A stretch of 64,000 nucleotides of DNA from an uncultured Gammaproteobacteria bacterium (lineage in GTDB: Bacteria > Patescibacteriota > Patescibacteriia > CAZSQN01). The notes under the pieces are model-generated. The model saw only the letters and a list, made by a program, of their open reading frames with translations. It did no database searches and was not told the origin of the DNA. The translations under genes and the position numbers were made by a program. The stretch is from assembly GCA_964609095.1 (NCBI GenBank), contig CAZSQN010000003.1:12687-76686 (forward strand). Direction: 5' to 3'. Positions 2,739-57,218 of this stretch are shown here, in pieces (positions within the stretch are counted from its first letter, which is position 1; every line of letters starts with the position of its first letter).

Positions 2739-3617
2739 TTATATTTTTAGATTAAAAAGCCGGACGGCGTTTTTAGTCGTTTCCTCCGCGATTTGCTCAT
2801 AACCGACGCCTTTGATTTCGGCAAGCCGTCGGGCGACAAACTCCACATAGCTTGGCTCGTTGCGCGCTCCGCGATGCGGCGGCGGGGCAAGATATGGCGA
2901 ATCGGTTTCAACCATAATCATATTAAGCGGCGCACGGAAGGCAACCTCGGCTAAAATATCAAGCGCGCCTTTTTTTGGCGGAAAAGCAATTGTTCCGGTA
3001 AAAGAAATTAAAAATTCCAGATCAAAATATCTTTTGGCGTCTTCCCAATTTCCGCTAAAACAATGAATCACCCCCCTTTTGCCCAGATTGCCCTGATGGA
3101 TTTCGTCGTGAAGAATCTCAATCGCGTCAGAATGCGCGCTTGCGGCCTCCGGAGTCAAACCATCGCGGACATGGACAACGAGCGGGAGATTTAATTCTGT
3201 GGCCAGATGAACATGCTCGCGAAACGTTTGCCTTTGTTTCTCTTTTGTCGCTTCCGCGTCCAAACCTTCCGGAATGCGGTAATAATCCAGCCCGCATTCG
3301 CCTATGGCAACTATTTTTTCCGAACTCCGCGCTAAATTTTTATAAAATTCGTAATCAAACTTCTCCAACTCTTTTTTAGGATTTGAAAGTTCAGATTCGT
3401 CGTGATGCAAACTATAAAGATGGCTTGGATGCATGCCCACGGCTGCCCAGATGCCGTCATCGTATTTTGCCGCCACGGCAATGGCGCCGGCTGATGTAGC
3501 CGCGTCGGTGCCAACCGTTATCATTTTGACGTTATTAAGAAAAGCGCGACGAATAACTTCGTCGCCGTCTTCTTTATAAGCGTTAAAGTGAACGTGGCAG
3601 TGGGTGTCAATCAGCAT
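2739..3617 (-). CDS. tatD: TatD-family metal-dependent hydrolase (DNase).
   Basis: N-terminus MLIDTHCHVHF plus His/Asp/Glu metal ligands spaced as in TatD/YcfH. Confidence 0.8.
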   Translation of the reverse strand: MLIDTHCHVHFNAYKEDGDEVIRRAFLNNVKMITVGTDAATSAGAIAVAAKYDDGIWAAVGMHPSHLYSLHHDESELSNPKKELEKFDYEFYKNLARSSEKIVAIGECGLDYYRIPEGLDAEATKEKQRQTFREHVHLATELNLPLVVHVRDGLTPEAASAHSDAIEILHDEIHQGNLGKRGVIHCFSGNWEDAKRYFDLEFLISFTGTIAFPPKKGALDILAEVAFRAPLNMIMVETDSPYLAPPPHRGARNEPSYVEFVARRLAEIKGVGYEQIAEETTKNAVRLFNLKI

Positions 3618-4190: not shown

Positions 4191-5711
4191 CTAATGACTA
4201 ATTTCTAATCTTGGAAAAAGCGCCGCGCCCTTTTTCACCTTGCTTCCCGGCTTTATCCCGCCCCATTTTTTGGCCGTCTCATAGCGCGAACTCCGCCAGG
4301 TCTTTCCAAAGCCAAGGTCTTTAAAAATTTTATCAGCCGTATCGGGTAAAAATGGCGCGACCATCCAAGCAATATTTCGGAGCGATTCAAGCAAGGTGTA
4401 GATAACTTTAGAGAGCCGTTTTTTGTCTATTTTGGCTAAAACCCACGGCTGCTCCGTATCAATAAATTTATCCAAAGCGCCGACCGCGTCCCAGATATCG
4501 GAGAGAGCCAAATCCAACCTTAAACTCCCCATATTCACTTCATATGATAGCCAAGTATGGGCAATCCTGCCAGTGGCGCGAGGCGGCACTATACCGCCAA
4601 AATACTTTTCGGCCATGCCTAAAATTCTGGCGGTTAAATTGCCTAAACCATTGGCCAGATCAGCGTTGTACCGCTCGCTCATCCTGTCGGGCGAAAAGTC
4701 CCCGTCGTTGCCAAACCCGATTTCGCGCAAAAGATAATAACGCAAAGCATCAACGCCAAACCGCGAAGTCAATTCAACCGGATTAATCGCGTTGCCCAGC
4801 GACTTGGAGATTTTCTCTCCGTCTATGGTAAAAAATCCGTGGGCAAAAACTTTTTTGGGAAGCGGCAATCCGGCGGAAAGCAGCATGGCCGGCCAAAGCG
4901 CGCAATGAAACTTGATAATATCTTTGCCCACCAGATGCAGGTCCGCCGGCCAATACTTTTGAAATTTTTTACCGTCTGCGCCGTAGCCAACCGCGCTTAA
5001 ATAATTGATAAGCGCGTCAAACCAGACATAAATCGCGTGATGTTTATCCTTTGGAAACGGAGTCCCGCATTTTGCCGAAGCGCGGGTAATGGAAATATCC
5101 TCCATAAAATTTTGGATATAACTCACTACCTCGTTTCGCCTGCTTTCAGGCGCGATAAAATCAGGATGCTTTTTAATGTGATTCAAAAGCGCTTTCCTGT
5201 ATTTTGACAGTTTGAAAAAATAATTTTCTTCTTTAATTTTTTCCGGCGGCTTTTTATGAATCGGGCAAAGCCCGCTTTCCAAATCCGATTCAGGCAAAAA
5301 TGTTTCGCATCCGACGCAGTACCAGCCCTCATAAGTTCCTTTATAAATATCCCCGCGCTTCCATACCACCTCAATAAACTTGGCGATCGCCTTTTTATGC
5401 CGCGTCTCGGTCGTGCGGATAAAATCGTCATTAGTCATTCCGAGCGAATCCCAGGTTTCCGCCCAAACCGCAGCCATTTCATCCAGATAACCTTTGATGT
5501 CCCCCTCTTTTCCCAATTTTTTGGCCGCTTCAATATTCTTTTGGCTGTTTTCATCCGTGCCAGTTAAAAAATTTACCTCAAAACCACGCATACGAAAGTA
5601 GCGCGCGAGCGCGTCTGCCGCGAACATAGTATAAGCGTGGCCAATATGCGGCTTGTCGTTTACGTAATAGATAGGCGTGGTGATGTAGAATTTTTTGGAA
5701 TTTAATGCCAT
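4191..5711 (-). CDS. metG: Methionyl-tRNA synthetase (class I, short form).
   Basis: TTPIYYVNDKPHIGHAYT (HIGH motif), KISKSLGN (KMSKS motif), and Cys-rich zinc knuckle CVGCETF...CPIHK. Confidence 0.92.
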   Translation of the reverse strand: MALNSKKFYITTPIYYVNDKPHIGHAYTMFAADALARYFRMRGFEVNFLTGTDENSQKNIEAAKKLGKEGDIKGYLDEMAAVWAETWDSLGMTNDDFIRTTETRHKKAIAKFIEVVWKRGDIYKGTYEGWYCVGCETFLPESDLESGLCPIHKKPPEKIKEENYFFKLSKYRKALLNHIKKHPDFIAPESRRNEVVSYIQNFMEDISITRASAKCGTPFPKDKHHAIYVWFDALINYLSAVGYGADGKKFQKYWPADLHLVGKDIIKFHCALWPAMLLSAGLPLPKKVFAHGFFTIDGEKISKSLGNAINPVELTSRFGVDALRYYLLREIGFGNDGDFSPDRMSERYNADLANGLGNLTARILGMAEKYFGGIVPPRATGRIAHTWLSYEVNMGSLRLDLALSDIWDAVGALDKFIDTEQPWVLAKIDKKRLSKVIYTLLESLRNIAWMVAPFLPDTADKIFKDLGFGKTWRSSRYETAKKWGGIKPGSKVKKGAALFPRLEISH

Positions 5712-5796
5712 AAGCTCATTTAATACAATCCTAATTCAGTATAACTTGTAATTTCCAAAATACCAAATTCCGTTTCGGTTCCTATATTCTGTAAAA

Positions 5797-12246: not shown

Positions 12247-12356
12247 AGAAAATTAATTATGTGGATAAGTCCCTTTAATTATATCATAATACGGCTTGTT
12301 TATTTATAATTTAGGAATTACTATGTATAATACGGCTTAAATCAATAAAAAATCTT

Positions 12357-12941
12357 ATGCCTTATCTGCCCAAACCGCTGCCTTACAAAGAACTCAAAGG
12401 CATTTCAGCCAAAACACTGGAAATACATCACGGAAAGCTCTATGCGGGCTATGTTAATAAAAGAAACGAAATTGAGGATAAATTAAAATCCGCAGACCTT
12501 TCTTCGGCCAATCAAACCTATTCCGAATTGCGCGCGCTTAAAGTTGAAGAAACCTTTGCCGGAAACGGCGCGGCGCTGCACGAGGCCTATTTTGAAGGAA
12601 TGGGCGGAAGTGGCGGCAGGCCGTCGGGTAAGCTCCTTTCGGCAATAGAAGCCGAATGGGGTAATTATGAAAAGTGGGAGGCGGAATTTAAGGCCTGCGC
12701 TCTGGCTGTGCGCGGCTGGGTCGTGCTGGCCTACGATACTAATGATAATCGGCTTCACAATTATGTCGGTGACGCCCACAACCAGGGAGGAATGTGGGGC
12801 GCGATTCCGGTTCTTGTGCACGATGTTTACGAACACGCTTATTTTATTGATTACGGCAGCGACAGAAAGACCTATGTGGAAGCATATATGAGCAATATTA
12901 ATTGGACGGCGGCAGAAAAAATTTATTCTAAATACGCTTAA
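12357..12941 (+). CDS. sodA: Fe/Mn superoxide dismutase.
   Basis: LPYxxxELxGISAKTLEIHHGKLYAGYV at the N-terminus, and DVYEHAYFIDYGSDRKTYVEAYMSNINW (the D-x-W-E-H-A-Y-Y signature) at the C-terminus. Confidence 0.9.
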   Translation: MPYLPKPLPYKELKGISAKTLEIHHGKLYAGYVNKRNEIEDKLKSADLSSANQTYSELRALKVEETFAGNGAALHEAYFEGMGGSGGRPSGKLLSAIEAEWGNYEKWEAEFKACALAVRGWVVLAYDTNDNRLHNYVGDAHNQGGMWGAIPVLVHDVYEHAYFIDYGSDRKTYVEAYMSNINWTAAEKIYSKYA

Positions 12942-23248: not shown

Positions 23249-23677
23249 ATGCAAGAAGACCTTGACCCCAATAAGGCAACCTATGTTGATCCGAGACACG
23301 AGGAACACGCCTTTGACTTGCCTTTTTGGCGAGATAATCAGAAATTATGGGTATTAAAAGTTCCAGTGGAAGATATGAATATTGAGGAATTGCTTTGGAT
23401 TTTAGATGTGCCGTTCTGGGAAGACGAACGCGGCAATATCGTTATAACGCCCAATGAGGTTATAAACAATCCGGATAAATATCCCGCGCACCAAAACAGA
23501 ATAACGGCTGCCGACACTTCTTATCCCATTGATATAATGAAAAATAAAAAAGGAAAGTGGCTGACGTTAGACGGGCTGCACCGCCTTGCCAAGCTGGCAA
23601 TAAAAAAAGCACCCACTGTTAAAGTTAGGAAAATTCCGCCGAAACTTGTCCATTTGACGGCACGGGATAATAAGTAA
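23249..23677 (+). CDS. ParB/sulfiredoxin-fold (ParB-like nuclease domain) protein.
   Basis: PIDIMKNKKGKWLTLDGLHRLAKLAIKK matches the ParB/Srx core (DGxHR...A). Confidence 0.5.
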   Translation: MQEDLDPNKATYVDPRHEEHAFDLPFWRDNQKLWVLKVPVEDMNIEELLWILDVPFWEDERGNIVITPNEVINNPDKYPAHQNRITAADTSYPIDIMKNKKGKWLTLDGLHRLAKLAIKKAPTVKVRKIPPKLVHLTARDNK

Positions 23678-25065: not shown

Positions 25066-25160
25066 AATTATTATTCCGTTTATTACATTTTTTCAAAATC
25101 CTTTAACGGCTGTGGATAACTGTTATTTCAAACTTTCTATTTATTTTCTATAATATCAGT

Positions 25161-26663
25161 ATGATGACAAAAAAGCAAAAACACGTGCTCGATTTTATAA
25201 CCTTTCACCAAGAACGGGAAGGATATGCCCCTTCCCTTGATGAGATACGCAAGAAATTTAAACTTGCGTCTGTTTCAACTGCCCATTTCCACGTATCAAA
25301 ACTCCGCGATTTGGGTTATTTATCCAAAGAAGAAAATAAACCGCGAGCCATTGAAGCGCTTGGCCGCGAAACAATGGTAAAGATTCCGCTTTTAGGAACG
25401 ATCGCCGCCGGCCAACCTATTGAAGCAATTCAAGAAAAAGAGATAATCGCGGTTCCAAAAAGCAAAATTCCTTTTTCGTCAGAGGTTTATGCTCTCCGCG
25501 TAGTCGGAAGCAGTATGATTGACGAAAATATAAACGATGGCGATGTTGTTTTGGTGCGTCAACAGGAAACAGCCGAAAACGGACAAAAAGTCGTGGCTCT
25601 CATAGATAATCACGAAGCAACCTTAAAAAAATTTTACAGAGAAAACGGGTATATTCGATTACAGCCCGCAAACAAAACAATGGAACCGCTTATTTTTAGA
25701 AATGGGCGGGATGTTTCAATTCAAGGAGTTGTGCTGGATGTTATTCGTGATGGCGGTTTTGTGTCTCCGGTAGAAATTTATCCGGATGCAAAACTTCTTA
25801 ATCGAGAAAGAAAAGTCAAAAACCGAGAAGCAAAAGAAAGAACGCGCGGCGGCACAAAATTTCAGAAAGATGCCGTTATGGTTGCGCAAGCAGACGGTAT
25901 TGAAAAATTTACTAATAAAATTATTTGCGGCGACAGTGAAGAAGTTTTGCGTAAAATCCCAACCGGTTCAGTTGATATTATTATTACATCGCCTCCATAT
26001 AATTTTGGTCTGGAATATAAAGACGATAAGAAAAATGATGCGGTTCACTGGGACGAGTATTTTAAGAAGATAAACACAATTTGGAAGGAGTGCGCGCGTG
26101 TTCTAAAACCAGGCGGACGATTGTGCCTCAATGTACAGCCATTGTTTTCAGATTACATTCCGACACATCACCTGATGTCAAAACAACTACTCAATCACGG
26201 TCTTATATGGAAAGGCGAAATTTTGTGGGAAAAAAACAACTATAACTGCAAATATACCGCGTGGGGTAGCTGGAAAAGCCCCAGTATGCCATATTTGAAG
26301 TACACTTGGGAATTTGTTGAGATTTTTTCAAAAGATACGCACAAAAAAGTCGGTGACTCGTCAAAAGCCGATATTACTGGCGATGAGTTTAAAAAATGGG
26401 TTTACGCGAAATGGTCTATTGCCTCCGAACGAAACATGAAAGATTATGATCATCCCGCGATGTTTCCAAAAGAGTTAGCAACACGACTGATGAAACTTTT
26501 CAGCTATCAAGACGATATCGTACTTGATCCATTTAACGGCGCCGGCACAACAACACTTTGCGCCGCAGAAACCGGCAGAAAATATATCGGCATAGATATT
26601 TCGCCTAAATACTGCGAAATCTCTGAAAAACGAATTAAAGAAATTCCAGCGAAGTTATTTTAG
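25161..26663 (+). CDS. LexA-like repressor (wHTH plus S24 autopeptidase) fused in frame to a beta-class N4-C/N6-A DNA methyltransferase.
   Basis: Residues 1-205 form a complete LexA: an HTH, the AAGQP Ala-Gly cleavage site, GSSM serine and LKKF lysine. Residues about 245-500 form the methyltransferase: NKIICGDSEEVLRKIP...IIITSPPYNF (motif IV) followed by C-terminal DPFNGAGTT (motif I). This is the beta-class domain order. No stop separates the two domains. Confidence 0.75.
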   Translation: MMTKKQKHVLDFITFHQEREGYAPSLDEIRKKFKLASVSTAHFHVSKLRDLGYLSKEENKPRAIEALGRETMVKIPLLGTIAAGQPIEAIQEKEIIAVPKSKIPFSSEVYALRVVGSSMIDENINDGDVVLVRQQETAENGQKVVALIDNHEATLKKFYRENGYIRLQPANKTMEPLIFRNGRDVSIQGVVLDVIRDGGFVSPVEIYPDAKLLNRERKVKNREAKERTRGGTKFQKDAVMVAQADGIEKFTNKIICGDSEEVLRKIPTGSVDIIITSPPYNFGLEYKDDKKNDAVHWDEYFKKINTIWKECARVLKPGGRLCLNVQPLFSDYIPTHHLMSKQLLNHGLIWKGEILWEKNNYNCKYTAWGSWKSPSMPYLKYTWEFVEIFSKDTHKKVGDSSKADITGDEFKKWVYAKWSIASERNMKDYDHPAMFPKELATRLMKLFSYQDDIVLDPFNGAGTTTLCAAETGRKYIGIDISPKYCEISEKRIKEIPAKLF

Positions 26664-27271
26664 AGATGCTTTTTGAGTGCGCGCTCAAAGTATCTGATTG
26701 CATGGTCCAATCTTTCGGGGCGAAGTGGTTTATAAAACTGCTTTTTGTGTATTTCCCCTTTAATGTTTCGCTCTCCATCCAGCATAGTGATAATCTCAAT
26801 GTCGAGATTTGGGAAATGATGCTCAAGAACTTTGACCGATGGACTCCCGTTCGGATGATTAACGGCGATGGAGTAATCACCGCCAAGCATACTCTCCAGT
26901 TGAAAAAGAAAAAATTTGAGTTTTGGAAAATGCTTTTTGAGCAAAAAAGCGTCAACTAATATCCGTTTATACATTGCGACCTCTGCATACGCCTTGCATT
27001 CAATCGAAAGCACAAATTCACCGTCAATATAAATCTGTTTGTCCTGCGATAGTTTATAAACATTTCCTTTTCCATCAACGATGGGATATTTTGTTTTGTT
27101 GATTTTAATACGTGCGGGTTTGCCGCCGATGTTCTTCCATGCAAGCAAAACCATCTCCTCAGCCATCGTCTCAACAAGAGTGCCTTTCAATGAACGCAAA
27201 ACACCACCTGCGCGGATGCGCCACATTTTTCGTATTGTTCGTTCATAAAATTTTATAAATTTGTCAAACAT
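26660..27271 (-). CDS. Putative Type II restriction endonuclease (PD-(D/E)xK), convergent with and 4 nt overlapping the methyltransferase gene.
   Basis: YIDGEFVLSIECKAY fits the D...E-x-K motif. 203 aa. Position fits a restriction-modification pair. Confidence 0.5.
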   Translation of the reverse strand: MFDKFIKFYERTIRKMWRIRAGGVLRSLKGTLVETMAEEMVLLAWKNIGGKPARIKINKTKYPIVDGKGNVYKLSQDKQIYIDGEFVLSIECKAYAEVAMYKRILVDAFLLKKHFPKLKFFLFQLESMLGGDYSIAVNHPNGSPSVKVLEHHFPNLDIEIITMLDGERNIKGEIHKKQFYKPLRPERLDHAIRYFERALKKHL

Positions 27272-27329
27272 ATTATTTCAGAAATAATCAACCGGCTTTT
27301 TGTGAATCCGCAGGTTTATTATCTATAAT

Positions 27330-28418
27330 TTAGTCCCCCAACTCCCAACGCAGCTCTTCCAAAAGCTCTTTCTGCCGCCGTGATAATTTTTGCGGAATAT
27401 CAACTAAAATCTCCACCAAGTGGTCGCCTCTACCGGACTTGCCCAAACGCGGCACTCCTTTGCATTTTAATTTCAACATCGTCCCGGGCAAAGTTCCAGC
27501 GGGAATTTTTAACTCCACTTCTCCGTCAACCGTTTCCACGGTCATGCTTCCGCCCAAAACCGCAAACGGATAAGTTATTTTTAATTTGGAAAAGATATCG
27601 TCTCCTTTGCGTTCAAATCTTTTGTCCTTTCTTACTTCTATGTTGATATACAAATCTCCGGCGCTTCCTCCGCGTATCCCCGCTTCTCCTCCGCCCGGAA
27701 CGCGCATAGTGCCGCCATCATCAACTCCGGCCGGAATTTTAACCAAAAACTTTTTCGTGCCTTTGGCAACTCCTGTTCCTCCGCACTTTTTACACTCCTC
27801 TTTTGGCTTGCTCCCCAGCCCGCCGCAGTCGCTACAGGTAACAACCGACTGCATCATGCCGAAAATAGTGCGTGAGGATTGCCTTACCTGGCCGGCTCCG
27901 CCGCAGGTTTTGCAGGTAATCATTTCCGTATTCGGCTCTTTGCCTGCTCCGTCGCACTCTTCGCAGGCAATTTCTTTGTAAAGCTCAACCTCGCGCTCCG
28001 TGCCCGTAACCGCGTCCATCAAGTCAATCGTCATATTCATCTCAATGTCCCGGCCGCGCTTGGAGCGGGTTTTTGTTCCGGTGCCGCCCCGAGATGAGCT
28101 GAAACCGCCTGAAAACATATTTCCCAAAATATCTCCCAGGTCTTCCATATTGATGCCGCCTCCCATTCCGCCAAAACCCTCAAAACCGGAAAATCCGCCT
28201 TGTCCGTTCTGGTCAAAGGCGGTTCCATATTGGTCGTATTGTTTGCGCTTTTTGGCATCGCCCAGCACCTGATACGCTTCATTGATTTCCTTAAACTTGT
28301 CCTGATTTCCGCCTTTATCAGGATGATGCTCGTGCGCGAGCCGGCGAAAGGCCTTTTTAATCTCGTCATCAGTCGCCTCCCGCCCAACTCCTAAGGTTTT
28401 GTAATAATCTTTGGACAT
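27330..28418 (-). CDS. dnaJ: Chaperone DnaJ.
   Basis: J-domain with HPD (AHEHHPDK), a G/F region, and four CxxCxGxG zinc-finger repeats. Confidence 0.95.
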
Positions 28419-53893: not shown

Positions 53894-53998
53894 GCAAATC
53901 TATAAACGAACTACGAACCTACGAACATGCAAATACGGTATTCGCACATTCGCGGCATTCGCATAAGATTCGCATTATTTGCATTATGTTTATCCGCA
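53894..53998. repeat. About 100-bp ATTCGCA-rich intergenic repeat, copy R2.
   Basis: GCAAATCTATAAACGAA...GTATTCGCACATTCGCGGCATTCGCATAAGATTCGCATTATTTGCATTATG. Same orientation as R1. Confidence 0.8.
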
Positions 53999-56317
53999 CT
54001 TGGAATACCCGCACCCTTGGCAGAGCATACAGCCCTCGCCCATGCGTAACACCCCTCCGCAATCAGGGCATTGCGGCGCGCCGCCAAAGTTAGCAATGGA
54101 TTTTGTTTTAATCAACGGAACGGGTTCTGATTCTACTGCCGAAACAGGTATGGCTTCCGGCACGCGCAAACTTTTTACTTCGGCATTTTCCATTTCCTTT
54201 TTCGCCTCGGCAAGCGGCAGATGCCGTTGCGGGCCTTTAACATGCTCTTCCAGCACTTGGGCAATGGCGTCCGGAACGGAGAGAATCATGCCCCGTTCGC
54301 TCCAGCTGGGCATCGGCCCCCTGATTCCTTTTATCTGGTCAATCACTTCTTCGGGCGCAATGCCCGAACGCAAAGAAAGCGAAACCAATCGGCAAACGCT
54401 TTCCGATTTGGCGGCAAAAAATCCTCCGGCCTTGCCGATGGTGGCAAAAACCTCAAACGGTTTGCCGTCTTCATCATCATTTACCGTAATGTAGAGATTG
54501 CCGTAGCCGGTGGAGCATTTATAGGTCTTTCCGCTCATCACCTTTGGACGGATGCGCGGCGACAATTTGGGGAGTTGCCCCGCGGACGCGGGATTATCAG
54601 AAGTTGAAAGTTCGGATTGTTTTTCCTCATTGTTTACTTTTTGATTCTTATCTTTAGAGTACAAAACCGCCGCGTCTCTGGAGTTTTCCCTAAAATACGC
54701 CACTCCCTTGCAGCCCAGCTCATAAGCCAAAGTATATAATGTCTTCACATCTTCCAAAGTATGTCCCTCCGGGGCATTGACCGTCTTGGAAATGGAAGAA
54801 TCAACATATTTTTGTATAATCGCCTGCATGCGGATATGCTCTTCCGGAGAAAGCTCCTTGGCATTCACAAAATAATCGGGGACTTTTTCTCCCGGATGCT
54901 CGTCAATATATTTTTGATACAAAGGATGATAAACCTCGTGCTCTCCGATGCGGTCTTTGCGCGTAAAGACAAAATCATAAATCGGCTCTATGCCCGAACT
55001 TGCGCCGGAGAGCAGCGAGGTGGTGCCGGTTGGCGCCTGCGTCAAGAGCACGGCGTTTCTAATGCCAACTTCCGCGATGCCGGCCTTGATGTCATCCGGA
55101 AGCTGCTCTATAAAATAACCTTGCAGATACTTCTCACGCTCAAATTTTGGAAACGCGCCCTTTTCCGCCGCCATGGCCACCGAGGCGCGATAGGCCTCGT
55201 CCCGTATAAAAGAATACAGCTTTTCGCAAAAAGCAATCGCCTCCGGCGAGCCGTAGCGGATTTTTAATTTAATCAAAAGATCGCCCAAACCCATTGACCC
55301 AAGGCCGGTGCGGCGGATATTTTTTTGCGCTTCGCGATTTTCCAAAAACGGATAAGCCGTGGCGTCAATCACATTGTCTAAAAAACGGACAGACGCGGAC
55401 ACCACTCGTCCAAGCCGCGCCCAGTCAACATCGCCGTTTGCTTCAAACGCGGACAGGTTCAGCGCGCCAAGATTGCAGACGCTCCATGGGCCCAAACCCT
55501 GTTCGCCGCAGGGATTTACCGAAACGATATCTTCAAAATACCAGGTATTTGACCATTTGTTATATCGTTCCAAAAAAACAGTTCCCGGCTCGCCCGACGC
55601 CCATGCCGATTCGCAAATAAGGTCCCACAAATAACGGGCGCGGATGGTTTTTACGATTTCGCCCTTCCAGACAAGGTTCCAAGAAGCGTCCTTTTTAACC
55701 GCTTCCATAAAACGGTCGGACACGCAAACGGAAAGATTGGCGTTGGTGATAAGCCCCATTGTCTTTTTAACCGTAATAAACTCCTCAATATCCGGATGGT
55801 CATCATTTAACATAAGCATCAGCGCGCCCCGCCTGCTTCCTCCTTGGATAATTAATCCCGTGGCGTAAGAATAAAGGCCGCCAAAAGACACGGCGCCGGA
55901 AGCGGAGCCGTTAACGCCTTTAACGCGGCTTCCGCGCGGCCGAAGCGATGAAAGATTTACGCCGACTCCCCCGCTCCGGGACATTATCTCCACCATTGTT
56001 TTGACCGAATCCAAAATTCCGCTGCGCGAGTCCTCCGGACTGGGAATGACAAAACAATTATAAAAAGTCACTTCATAGCCGCTTCCGGCGCCGGAAAGAA
56101 TCCTGCCGCCGGGCACAAACTGGAATCCTTCGAGAGCTTTATAAAATTCATTGGCCCAAAAATCTTTTTTTTCCGGAGTGGATTCAACTTGGGCTATGGC
56201 CTTAGCCACCCGGCGCCACATTTCTTCGGGGGCGCTTTCTACCTGGTTTCCATTCGCGTCTTTAAGCGCGTAACGGTCGTCAAAAACTTTTTTAGAAAGG
56301 CCTTCTAGGATATGCAT
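53990..56317 (-). CDS. nrdJ: Class II (adenosylcobalamin-dependent) ribonucleotide reductase.
   Basis: Roughly 780-aa RNR catalytic core, with a C-terminal zinc ribbon [25 protein letters not shown] typical of NrdJ. Start taken at the internal ATG (MHILEGL), because the tracked GTG start lies inside NrdR box 1. Confidence 0.75.
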   Translation of the reverse strand: [775 protein letters not shown]

Positions 56318-56340
56318 AAAGCATGGGTTATGAAATTTAT

Positions 56341-56356
56341 CCACAATATATTGTGG
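56341..56356. promoter_or_regulatory. NrdR box 1.
   Basis: CCACAATATATTGTGG, a perfect 16-bp palindrome matching the NrdR-box consensus acaCwAtATaTwGtgt. Confidence 0.8.
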
Positions 56357-56372
56357 TTATAAATAAATTATA

Positions 56373-56388
56373 CCACTATATGTAGTGG
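56373..56388. promoter_or_regulatory. NrdR box 2, 32 bp from box 1.
   Basis: CCACTATATGTAGTGG, one mismatch from a perfect palindrome. The tandem 31-32-bp spacing is typical of NrdR operators. Confidence 0.8.
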
Positions 56389-56472
56389 CAAGTTGGGGAT
56401 AAGGTCGTACTTCTCGGCCTGCCTCAAACAGCAGCGGCACGCAAAAAATTTGTTTCCCTCGCTGAAGAATAT

Positions 56473-57087
56473 TTAAAACGGCATTGTGAGGTTAATGGCG
56501 GGTTTTGTTTCGGCCAGATTGCGGTTGAATTTAACGGGAACCAAAACCATTTTCCCCTGCCTATTGTCATAATATTTTAATTCCCCTTTTGCCAGACCAT
56601 GCTCGTAAACCGCTTTAGTAACTTTCACGTCCTGCAGACAATAATCGCGGAGCTTTTCCATCTCGCCCTGCCTAAAATACTGGACCGCCATAAGACCGTT
56701 GCCCGACTTTCCCATTCCCAAAGTTCCATGCGCCACATCATCCAATTTTACGCGAAATCCGATATGTTTCTGGATTTCTTCCATAATATCCAGCTGCGGA
56801 ATCCGCAAAAGGTCGCCGGCGTAATAATTATTCATCACCGGCAAATCAAAACCCTTGCTGTTGTATCCTACAATGCGCTCCGCGCGCTCTAAACGCGGCC
56901 AAAGCGAGGGCAACTCATGCTCCAAAAAACTTTCATAAGTGTCGGTTTCATAAAAATAAGCTCCCACAAGCGAAATGCGGAGCAGAGTATGGTCGTATTT
57001 CCCCACTTCCTGAAAGGTATTTTGCGTTTCTATGTCTAAAACGATTTCTTTGGACATAAATAAATTTAAATCCGAAATCCGAAGCAC
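56473..57087 (-). CDS. DEDD-family 3'-5' exonuclease (RNase H-like fold).
   Basis: Exo I VLDIETQN, Exo II GYNSKGFDLP, Exo III YCLQDVKVTKAV. Confidence 0.6.
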   Translation of the reverse strand: MLRISDLNLFMSKEIVLDIETQNTFQEVGKYDHTLLRISLVGAYFYETDTYESFLEHELPSLWPRLERAERIVGYNSKGFDLPVMNNYYAGDLLRIPQLDIMEEIQKHIGFRVKLDDVAHGTLGMGKSGNGLMAVQYFRQGEMEKLRDYCLQDVKVTKAVYEHGLAKGELKYYDNRQGKMVLVPVKFNRNLAETKPAINLTMPF

Positions 57088-57218
57088 GAAGCACGAAATC
57101 TAAAACAAATCTCTCGCACTTTATTGTAATAAGTTCGAAATGCCTAAAATTCAAAAGTTAAAACTTTTACTTTTGACTTTCACAGTTTACCACACTTTTT
57201 TTCTGTGGATAATTTTTT

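Follow-up and report, generated by a model that had tools for sequence, protein, structure and literature searches.

The 64-kb stretch of DNA examined here (the window) derives from a bacterium of the candidate phyla radiation (CPR; Patescibacteria) and encodes a type II restriction-modification (R-M) pair in which the methyltransferase (M) is fused to a complete LexA protein. In an R-M system methylation has to stay ahead of cleavage, and the known solutions to this balancing problem comprise controller (C) proteins, methyltransferases fused to helix-turn-helix (HTH) domains, promoter methylation and antisense RNA. With a methyltransferase that bears a complete LexA, R-M control would also respond to an environmental input, DNA damage, and would be linked with the SOS response. 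The locus was compared with related loci, designated here by L-numbers, which were drawn from independent NCBI, JGI, ENA and Logan assemblies; the features of the window copy are collected in Table 1.

The fusion gene is a single uninterrupted open reading frame (ORF) whose 500-residue product consists of a complete LexA, a disordered linker and a beta-class DNA methyltransferase in one polypeptide. The product scores 182 bits against the NCBIfam lexA equivalog model TIGR00498, for which the cut-off is 111 bits, and the closest solved structure to its N-terminal half is the Thermotoga LexA (3k2z, 2.7e-35). The C-terminal half matches the Pfam N6_N4_Mtase profile PF01555 over its entire length (aa 271-490, profile positions 1-221 of 221, 9.4e-40), the PADLOC MTase_II model matches the fusion at 1.1e-69, and the nearest structures to this half are TTHA0409 (2zie) and an N4-cytosine methyltransferase (8s9n). 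The order of the methyltransferase motifs, with SPPY ahead of DPFNGAGTT, is that of the beta class, and SPPY in motif IV presumably hints at N4-cytosine (m4C) as the modified base. The LexA motifs AAGQP (aa 82-86), GSSM (aa 116-119) and LKKF (aa 155-158) are all present, and Ala83, Gly84, Ser118 and Lys156 are each invariant in an alignment of 82 homologues with 46-92% identity; we take A83-G84, S118 and K156 to correspond to A84-G85, S119 and K156 of Escherichia coli LexA. The fused LexA thus appears competent for self-cleavage. An AlphaFold2 model contains a winged HTH (wHTH), an S24 beta-domain and a methyltransferase fold, with disorder at residues 198-240 and predicted local distance difference test (pLDDT) values below 50 at linker residues 198-220 and 228-238. 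Helices of the wHTH span residues 4-20, 26-32 and 38-50, the last being the approximate extent of the recognition helix (VSTAHFHVSKLRD). Comparison of the window with its closest relatives indicates purifying selection over the LexA part, the methyltransferase part and the nuclease (dN/dS 0.02-0.07; ~0.06 for the LexA part).

The convergent gene encodes the putative restriction endonuclease (R), and its stop codon overlaps that of M by 4 nt. No Pfam, NCBIfam or PDB sequence or profile search matched this protein, and only a fold search succeeded: the predicted structure (pLDDT 94.7) is nearest to BbvCI, NgoMIV, Bse634I, PspGI, SgrAI and Cfr10I. The PADLOC model for type II restriction endonucleases also matches (8.7e-55), the catalytic residues D77, E91 and K93 are invariant among 116 homologues, and dN/dS between R and its relatives is 0.04-0.06. 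A first-pass annotation, made from the DNA sequence alone, had proposed a LexA and a beta-class methyltransferase in one 500-codon frame, with the motifs named above and a K/R/E-rich linker, facing a convergent PD-(D/E)xK endonuclease across a 4-nt overlap, and these structural assignments agree with the domain, structure and alignment results.

Table 1. Features of the LexA-methyltransferase locus in the window (aa, residues of the encoded protein).
Feature	Positions	Strand	Basis or remark
DnaA-box motif TGTGGATAAC	25111-25120	+	Reverse complement of consensus TTATCCACA; just upstream of -35
Sigma-70-like promoter: -35 TTCAAA (25127-25132), 16-nt spacer, -10 TATAAT (25149-25154)	25127-25154	+	Promoter scan
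Candidate LexA-module operator TTTCTAT-TTAT-TTTCTAT, direct repeat of 11-bp period	25134-25151	+	Conservation, helix covariation; overlaps spacer and -10
LexA-methyltransferase fusion gene, 500 aa, uninterrupted	25161-26663	+	ORF, Pfam, NCBIfam, PDB relatives, AlphaFold2
LexA winged-HTH DNA-binding domain, aa 2-63	25164-25349	+	Pfam PF01726 LexA_DNA_bind, 3.5e-13
S24 self-cleavage and dimerisation domain, aa 76-191	25386-25733	+	Pfam PF00717 Peptidase_S24, 2.4e-29
Predicted scissile bond Ala83-Gly84	25407-25412	+	Motif, alignment
Predicted nucleophile Ser118	25512-25514	+	Motif, alignment
Predicted general base Lys156	25626-25628	+	Motif, alignment
Disordered K/R/E-rich linker, aa 198-249	25752-25907	+	pLDDT, homology break
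Beta-class N4/N6 DNA methyltransferase domain	25908-26660	+	Pfam PF01555, PADLOC, PDB relatives
Motif IV SPPY	25989-26000	+	aa 277-280
Motif I DPFNGAGTT	26526-26552	+	aa 456-464
Type II restriction endonuclease R, 203 aa, PD-(D/E)XK (D77, E91, K93)	26660-27271	-	Fold search, PADLOC, homologues
Remnant of C-gene 3' end, ~25 nt, including palindrome ATTATTTC-A-GAAATAAT	27272-27298	-	Aligns with C-gene end in L011/L013

Species-representative genomes were scanned with the LexA half alone, which returned 376 relatives, and the best 80 of these 376 were analysed further; they are 68-92% identical over the LexA half and belong to many CPR lineages. According to our own ORF and BLAST classification, the LexA half is fused to a methyltransferase in ~74 of these 80 loci, four are cut by contig ends and two are stand-alone, which extends to other CPR genomes the fusion first noticed in the window. 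More than 35 full-length homologues with all three domains were found at identities from 90% down to 49%, and those with a named source are Patescibacteria. Truncated or split versions occur in a small number of relatives (L027 encodes 300 aa, and others end at contig edges). Two fusions each were present in the contig of L001 and in the genomes JACQDT01 and JAGUVE01. The second LexA-S24-methyltransferase fusion of L001 (L001:12899-19584 of a 522.9-kb contig) has 616 aa and lies beside a SfiI/BglI/MwoI-like nuclease, and the homologue of the window system on the same contig is adjoined by NERD, GIY-YIG and AbiEi/AbiEii genes that together form a small defence island. Three IMG/VR contigs classed as viral (L093-L095) also encode relatives of the LexA module, two of them as proteins of 483 and 497 aa that extend past LexA; the SPPY motif is found in L094 and no methyltransferase motif was detected in L093, and both of these loci have operator repeats of inverted orientation located downstream of the -10 element. 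Phage records searched with the LexA half yielded only ordinary LexA/CI-like genes, all less than 60% identical.

The window, L001, L003, L006, L011 and L013 all have this M-R pair, in each case convergent with a 4-nt overlap. Its surroundings differ from place to place: it lies between a YibE/F gene and dnaJ-dnaK in the window, between thiolase and leuS genes in L003-L005, beside argS in L006/L007 and amid defence genes in L001. As the same pair occupies these different genomic contexts, it behaves as a mobile cassette. In plasmids we found no annotated relatives of R. Terminal inverted repeats were considered as cassette bounds and discarded, as they occur only in L019 and are absent from 29 other testable loci. 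In L019 an inverted repeat of 189-196 nt with 99% complementarity (3153-3341 and 5562-5750) flanks the LexA-M/R/C cassette on a 5.9-kb contig, and this repeat may be an assembly artefact.

One LexA module is combined with many different methyltransferases and nucleases. Behind the LexA halves described above, at least 10 clusters of methyltransferase halves (defined at <50% identity) can be distinguished, with SPPY or DPPY/DPPF as motif IV. Identity between the window protein and fusions of other clusters is 85-100% up to approximately aa 197 and at most 30% thereafter, and the homology junction lies directly after ...VLDVIR (aa 196). Each methyltransferase cluster has its own tightly linked partner nuclease, and at least 8 nuclease families are tied to the module; by Pfam these partners include RE_TaqI, BglII, Tsp45I, MutH-like, HNH and Endonuclease_7/His-Me proteins, and SfiI/BglI-like and Hpy99I-like nucleases are also represented. 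Although most synonymous distances between L011 and L013 are small (dS 0.12 for the methyltransferase and 0.11 for R), the value for the LexA part is 0.83, which indicates recombination at the LexA-methyltransferase junction in these sequences. The methyltransferase family of the window also exists as a stand-alone enzyme of ~305 aa in other phyla and in a form of 375-405 aa that keeps only the LexA wHTH (P0062 and similar proteins); the linker segment ERKVKNR..RGGTK is shared with P0062, which has the same methyltransferase. In the HNH, MutH-like and Tsp45I clusters M and R are co-directional.

At L061:4001-5412 a stand-alone LexA of 211 aa, 74% identical and preceded by the same promoter block with TTTCGGT repeats, is followed after 5 nt by a DpnI + DpnI_C methyl-directed nuclease (1.5e-77). 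In L049 a similar LexA is followed by a protein of 244 aa that matches HARE-HTH weakly.

Upstream of the fusion gene, a promoter scan identified a sigma-70-like promoter in which 10 of 12 positions match. An alignment of 81 upstream regions of LexA modules revealed a conserved block composed of [T/G]GTGGATAAC, a gap of ~12 nt, a -35 element TTTACA or TTCAAA, and ACTTTCKATTTAYTTTCTATAAT. Between this block and the ATG there are either 6-7 nt or a leader of ~35 nt. The window is of the former kind, with only 6 nt from the -10 element to the ATG, and the mRNA is therefore probably leaderless. The repeat unit within the block co-varies with the recognition helix of the downstream LexA: AHF helices accompany TTTC[T/G]AT..TTTCTAT in 60 of 61 loci; IHQ, IHE or VAQ helices accompany TTCGGT..TTCGGT in 7 of 8; and IHF or VHF helices accompany TTTCTAC..GTTCTAT in 6 of 8, these counts being phylogenetically non-independent. 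This covariation points to the direct repeat as the operator of the LexA module. PMC7739468, citing Sanchez-Osuna et al. 2017, states that the LexA of Patescibacteria recognises a motif built as a direct repeat, and the candidate operator agrees with that statement. The first-pass annotation had placed the operator elsewhere, at a palindrome ATAAC-T-GTTAT. The palindrome is physically present (25116-25126); its role as operator was rejected, as conservation is limited to the left half, which belongs to the DnaA box TGTGGATAAC, and the right half GTTAT varies among relatives.

We assign TGTGGATAAC as a DnaA box because it matches the consensus, is enriched in intergenic DNA and is clustered in an origin-like region. 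The exact 9-mer is present in 56 of the 81 LexA-module upstream regions, most of the others having TGGGGATAA. In the CPR DNA examined, 66 of 80 exact copies are intergenic, compared with 17.6% of the sequence, and the dnaA-dnaN intergenic region of L067 holds the motif twice, clustered, together with one variant. A function of TGTGGATAAC as a LexA site was considered and rejected: the motif is unchanged across all recognition-helix classes while the operator repeat and the helix vary, and it occurs at other promoters and in the dnaA-dnaN cluster. Exact 9-mers (TGTGGATAA) at 12260-12268 and 57204-57212 of the window lie in two further promoter regions, those of an Fe/Mn superoxide dismutase gene (12357-12941, plus strand) and a PolB-exonuclease-like gene (56473-57087, minus strand), which suggests that DnaA may be a general transcription factor in this genome.

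The opposite end of the cassette is where the window departs from its relatives. The closest of these, L011 and L013 (92-94% identical), encode a 73-aa HTH_3 C protein that ends 1 nt before the start of R and is matched by the PADLOC 'Control_protein' models. By tblastn, at least 33 loci representing seven methyltransferase clusters have a C protein of 50-89% identity encoded immediately upstream of the convergent nuclease, and the C gene carries a conserved palindromic C-box-like promoter, tATATCCCATTTTGGGATTATACCACAATAGGATATAt. The typical cassette thus has the promoter and LexA at one end, C and its C-box at the other and a variable M/R cargo between them, and conserved ends with variable cargo suggest a route for the exchange of restriction specificities. 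The first-pass annotation had contrasted the fusion with control by C proteins, a contrast that is not supported, since the relatives carry a C gene and the window has lost it. Upstream of R the window has neither an intact C gene nor a C-box, only ~25 nt of the 3' end of the former, and the dnaJ stop codon at 27330 lies beyond this remnant; a similar remnant is found beside leuS in L003. The palindrome ATTATTTC-A-GAAATAAT (27274-27290) was considered as an operator of R and discarded, since it is part of the remnant. Between dnaJ and R, a scan of the window detected neither a terminator nor any minus-strand site resembling a promoter. With the C gene and its promoter lost, read-through from dnaJ is probably the only source of R transcripts.

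We interpret the locus as a mobile type II R-M cassette with a regulatory methyltransferase whose fused factor is a complete LexA and whose autorepression is relieved by DNA damage, a reading to which we assign a probability of about 0.7. The LexA part would dimerise through its S24 domain, and the dimer would bind TTTCTAT-N4-TTTCTAT over the -10 element of the cassette's own promoter. Methyltransferases fused to an HTH bind an operator overlapping the M promoter and repress their own gene, which is an established form of R-M control (PMC3874152, PMC12707154), and by analogy with them the fusion should repress its own promoter. Expression would then burst upon entry into a naive cell and settle at a low steady level. 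Following DNA damage, RecA filaments would stimulate self-cleavage at Ala83-Gly84, which would detach the DNA-binding domain, de-repress the promoter and yield more methyltransferase. Because M and R are convergent and overlapping with no terminator between them, increased transcription of M would also run antisense into R. The predicted net effect is a damage-triggered shift toward modification, a built-in form of restriction alleviation that would limit self-restriction. Through the DnaA box upstream of the -35 element, the replication initiator probably provides a further input. Responsiveness to the SOS signal is a reasonable inference.

Several observations weigh against this interpretation. 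Derivatives of the same methyltransferase that retain only the HTH lack the S24 domain, which is consequently dispensable in at least some systems. The window copy has no C gene and no recognisable promoter for R, so that R may be poorly expressed; it is nonetheless under purifying selection. In relatives with co-directional genes, both M and R would be induced from the LexA promoter. As these relatives and the LexA-DpnI pair of L061 place a nuclease behind the LexA promoter, the general role of the module may be damage-induced up-regulation of defence and not alleviation. The function that unites these loci may accordingly be damage-responsive control of restriction systems, of which alleviation need not be the specific form.

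The HTH-only proteins are also the starting point for the best of the competing explanations, which we consider unlikely: that the LexA module is no more than a dimeric autorepressor replacing the HTH of SsoII-type enzymes, with self-cleavage lacking a physiological role and no connection to damage. The promoter of the HTH-only variant (helix STVHQQ) is similar, having a DnaA box and direct repeats ATGTTCG-N4-ATGTTCG, and autorepression by an HTH-methyltransferase suffices in known systems (PMC3874152). However, catalytic residues without a use would be expected to drift, and the Ala-Gly site, the serine and the lysine are instead invariant in 82 of 82 homologues, some only 46% identical, within a LexA part under purifying selection; this invariance argues that self-cleavage is used.

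A second explanation, which we regard as distinctly improbable, is that the fused LexA is the host's global SOS repressor, carried on a methyltransferase and controlling an SOS regulon in addition to the R-M genes. The equivalog score above the TIGR00498 cut-off is in keeping with this, as is the lack of another LexA in the 64-kb window. In a global representative library the nearest stand-alone LexA proteins of ~200 aa are at most ~50% identical, and the few that could be placed come from other phyla or large genomes; since the nearest ordinary LexA proteins are this distant and those placed belong to other bacteria, it is possible that these CPR genomes have no other LexA. The distribution of the operator argues against a regulon of this kind. 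A single zero-mismatch copy exists in the window, and in ~740 kb of CPR DNA from related loci the operator occurs essentially once per locus, only at the promoter of the LexA module. An exact-match scan of metagenome contigs gave the same picture: among the 121 matches listed, 89 directly precede a LexA-module ORF, three lie in divergent LexA promoters, one precedes a copy disrupted by an insertion sequence (IS), the rest look like chance occurrences or microsatellites, and none is followed by a repair gene. Where the LexA-module ORF behind a listed match is complete (n=51), it encodes 396-621 aa in 50 cases and a 104-aa fragment in one, with none of ~200 aa. Moreover, the module moves with different R-M cargos into different contexts, and three cases with two fusions each are known, namely the L001 contig, JACQDT01 and JAGUVE01. 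As the operator is found almost only at LexA-module promoters and several fusions can share a genome, we favour the view that the module is a dedicated R-M controller, which is what it looks like from these comparisons, and not a global SOS repressor. The earlier suggestion that the cell's LexA activity resides on the methyltransferase is accordingly not supported. LexA-type proteins of this group may serve mobile defence rather than DNA repair, which bears on the organisation of the SOS response in ultra-small genomes.

Two arrangements at operator-bearing loci were recorded in the course of these scans. In L099, L203 and L131 the layout is divergent and a second, inverted operator faces a gene of 277 or 95 aa opposite the LexA gene; the LexA module may control these divergent partners. 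In L168 (operator at ~6430, minus-strand reading) the DnaA box, operator and -10 element are intact and an IS3-type transposase-like ORF then replaces the LexA gene, so that the locus looks like an insertion-disrupted copy.

A third explanation, for which we see little room, reverses the outcome: the fusion would act as a suicide or defence trigger, cleaved and degraded in response to damage or phage single-stranded DNA, so that methylation falls or the nuclease is induced and restriction is turned on phage DNA, host DNA or both in a manner similar to abortive infection. De-repression would indeed raise the nuclease in the co-directional HNH, MutH-like and Tsp45I clusters and in the LexA-DpnI arrangement of L061. 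The N-terminal cleavage fragment would moreover end in ...IAA, a terminus similar to the ...VAA that ClpX recognises on cleaved E. coli LexA. Against this, only M lies behind the LexA promoter in the window and in most convergent relatives, the methyltransferase domain would reside in the C-terminal cleavage fragment, and the promoter logic predicts more M after cleavage. An artefact, in which a sequencing or assembly error erased a stop or frameshift between separate lexA and methyltransferase genes, as the first-pass annotation had cautioned for the linker, has a negligible probability because the same unbroken architecture recurs in dozens of independent assemblies from all four sources and purifying selection acts over the entire ORF.

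Extending the damage-relieved autorepression model beyond the window, we tentatively propose, at somewhat below even odds, a Patescibacteria-wide chassis in which a DnaA-box promoter, a direct-repeat operator and a cleavage-competent LexA are placed on many unrelated type II methyltransferases, occasionally before methyl-dependent nucleases, and are usually paired with a C module. LexA would function in this chassis as a damage and replication switch for R-M balance and not as the regulator of a repair regulon.

The regulatory methyltransferases M.SsoII, M.Ecl18kI, M.EcoRII, M.MspI and M.ScrFIA resemble the window protein in having an N-terminal DNA-binding domain fused to a methyltransferase. 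The known HTH-fused regulatory methyltransferases, the SsoII group, are C5-cytosine enzymes. The window methyltransferase is in contrast a beta-class amino-methyltransferase with a direct-repeat operator and a DnaA box in its promoter; its fused factor is an entire LexA (wHTH and S24 with invariant catalytic residues) that could potentially be inactivated by a signal, and this module is common to at least 10 methyltransferase families. The resemblance to the SsoII type is one of mechanism, with an N-terminal DNA-binding domain, an operator over the M promoter and predicted binding, and implies no membership of that family. With LexA/SOS repressors (TIGR00498; 3k2z, 1jhh) the module shares domain architecture, the Ala-Gly site, the Ser-Lys dyad and, as predicted here, autoregulation; it differs in being fused to an enzyme, in residing on a mobile R-M cassette, in occurring in several copies per genome and in having no regulon seen beyond its own operon in the DNA scanned. 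The relatives share an HTH_3 C protein and a C-box-like promoter upstream of R with the C-protein R-M systems (PvuII, BamHI, AhdI, Esp1396I, Kpn2I), but they combine C with a LexA-fused M at the opposite end, and in the window copy C has been deleted. Like alphaproteobacterial-type LexA boxes (GTTC-N7-GTTC), the candidate operator of the window consists of direct repeats spaced at an 11-bp period and is not a palindrome. In type I restriction alleviation, DNA damage leads to degradation of HsdR of EcoKI by ClpXP (PMC12707154). Both that process and the mechanism proposed for the window couple damage to a shift from restriction toward protection, but the former is post-translational, host-encoded and confined to type I systems, whereas the window would have its sensor in a type II methyltransferase and presumably act at transcription. 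A LexA-methyltransferase fusion is not described in broad reviews of R-M regulation from 2014 and 2025 (PMC3874152, PMC12707154) or in the literature reached by full-text searches, a coverage that does not include Sanchez-Osuna et al. 2017 on patescibacterial LexA. If the proposed mechanism is correct, the window protein would be the first regulatory methyltransferase that a signal can inactivate, and would give type II systems a counterpart of restriction alleviation.

Palindrome avoidance was considered as a guide to the recognition site of the pair and abandoned, as several 4-mers are depleted and no unique candidate emerges. GATC, TCGA, ACGT, CTAG and TGCA are strongly under-represented in the 64 kb (z -4.8 to -9.9), and six 6-bp palindromes (ACTAGT, AGTACT, CCTAGG, CTCGAG, GCTAGC and GTCGAC) are wholly absent, which fits prolonged pressure from many R-M systems. 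Elsewhere in the window, a 142-aa ORF at 23249-23677 (plus strand) has no Pfam match, and by eye only its DGLHR motif recalls ParB/sulfiredoxin-type nuclease domains. An exact copy of TTATCCACA at 56337 was rejected as a DnaA site because it belongs to a tandem pair of NrdR-box-like elements before a ribonucleotide reductase gene. This pair (56337-56400) precedes the gene for a class II ribonucleotide reductase (53990-56344, minus strand). It consists of two 16-bp palindromes ~31 bp apart, CCACAATATATTGTGG, which overlaps the TTATCCACA copy, and CCACTATATGTAGTGG, and it resembles tandem NrdR boxes.

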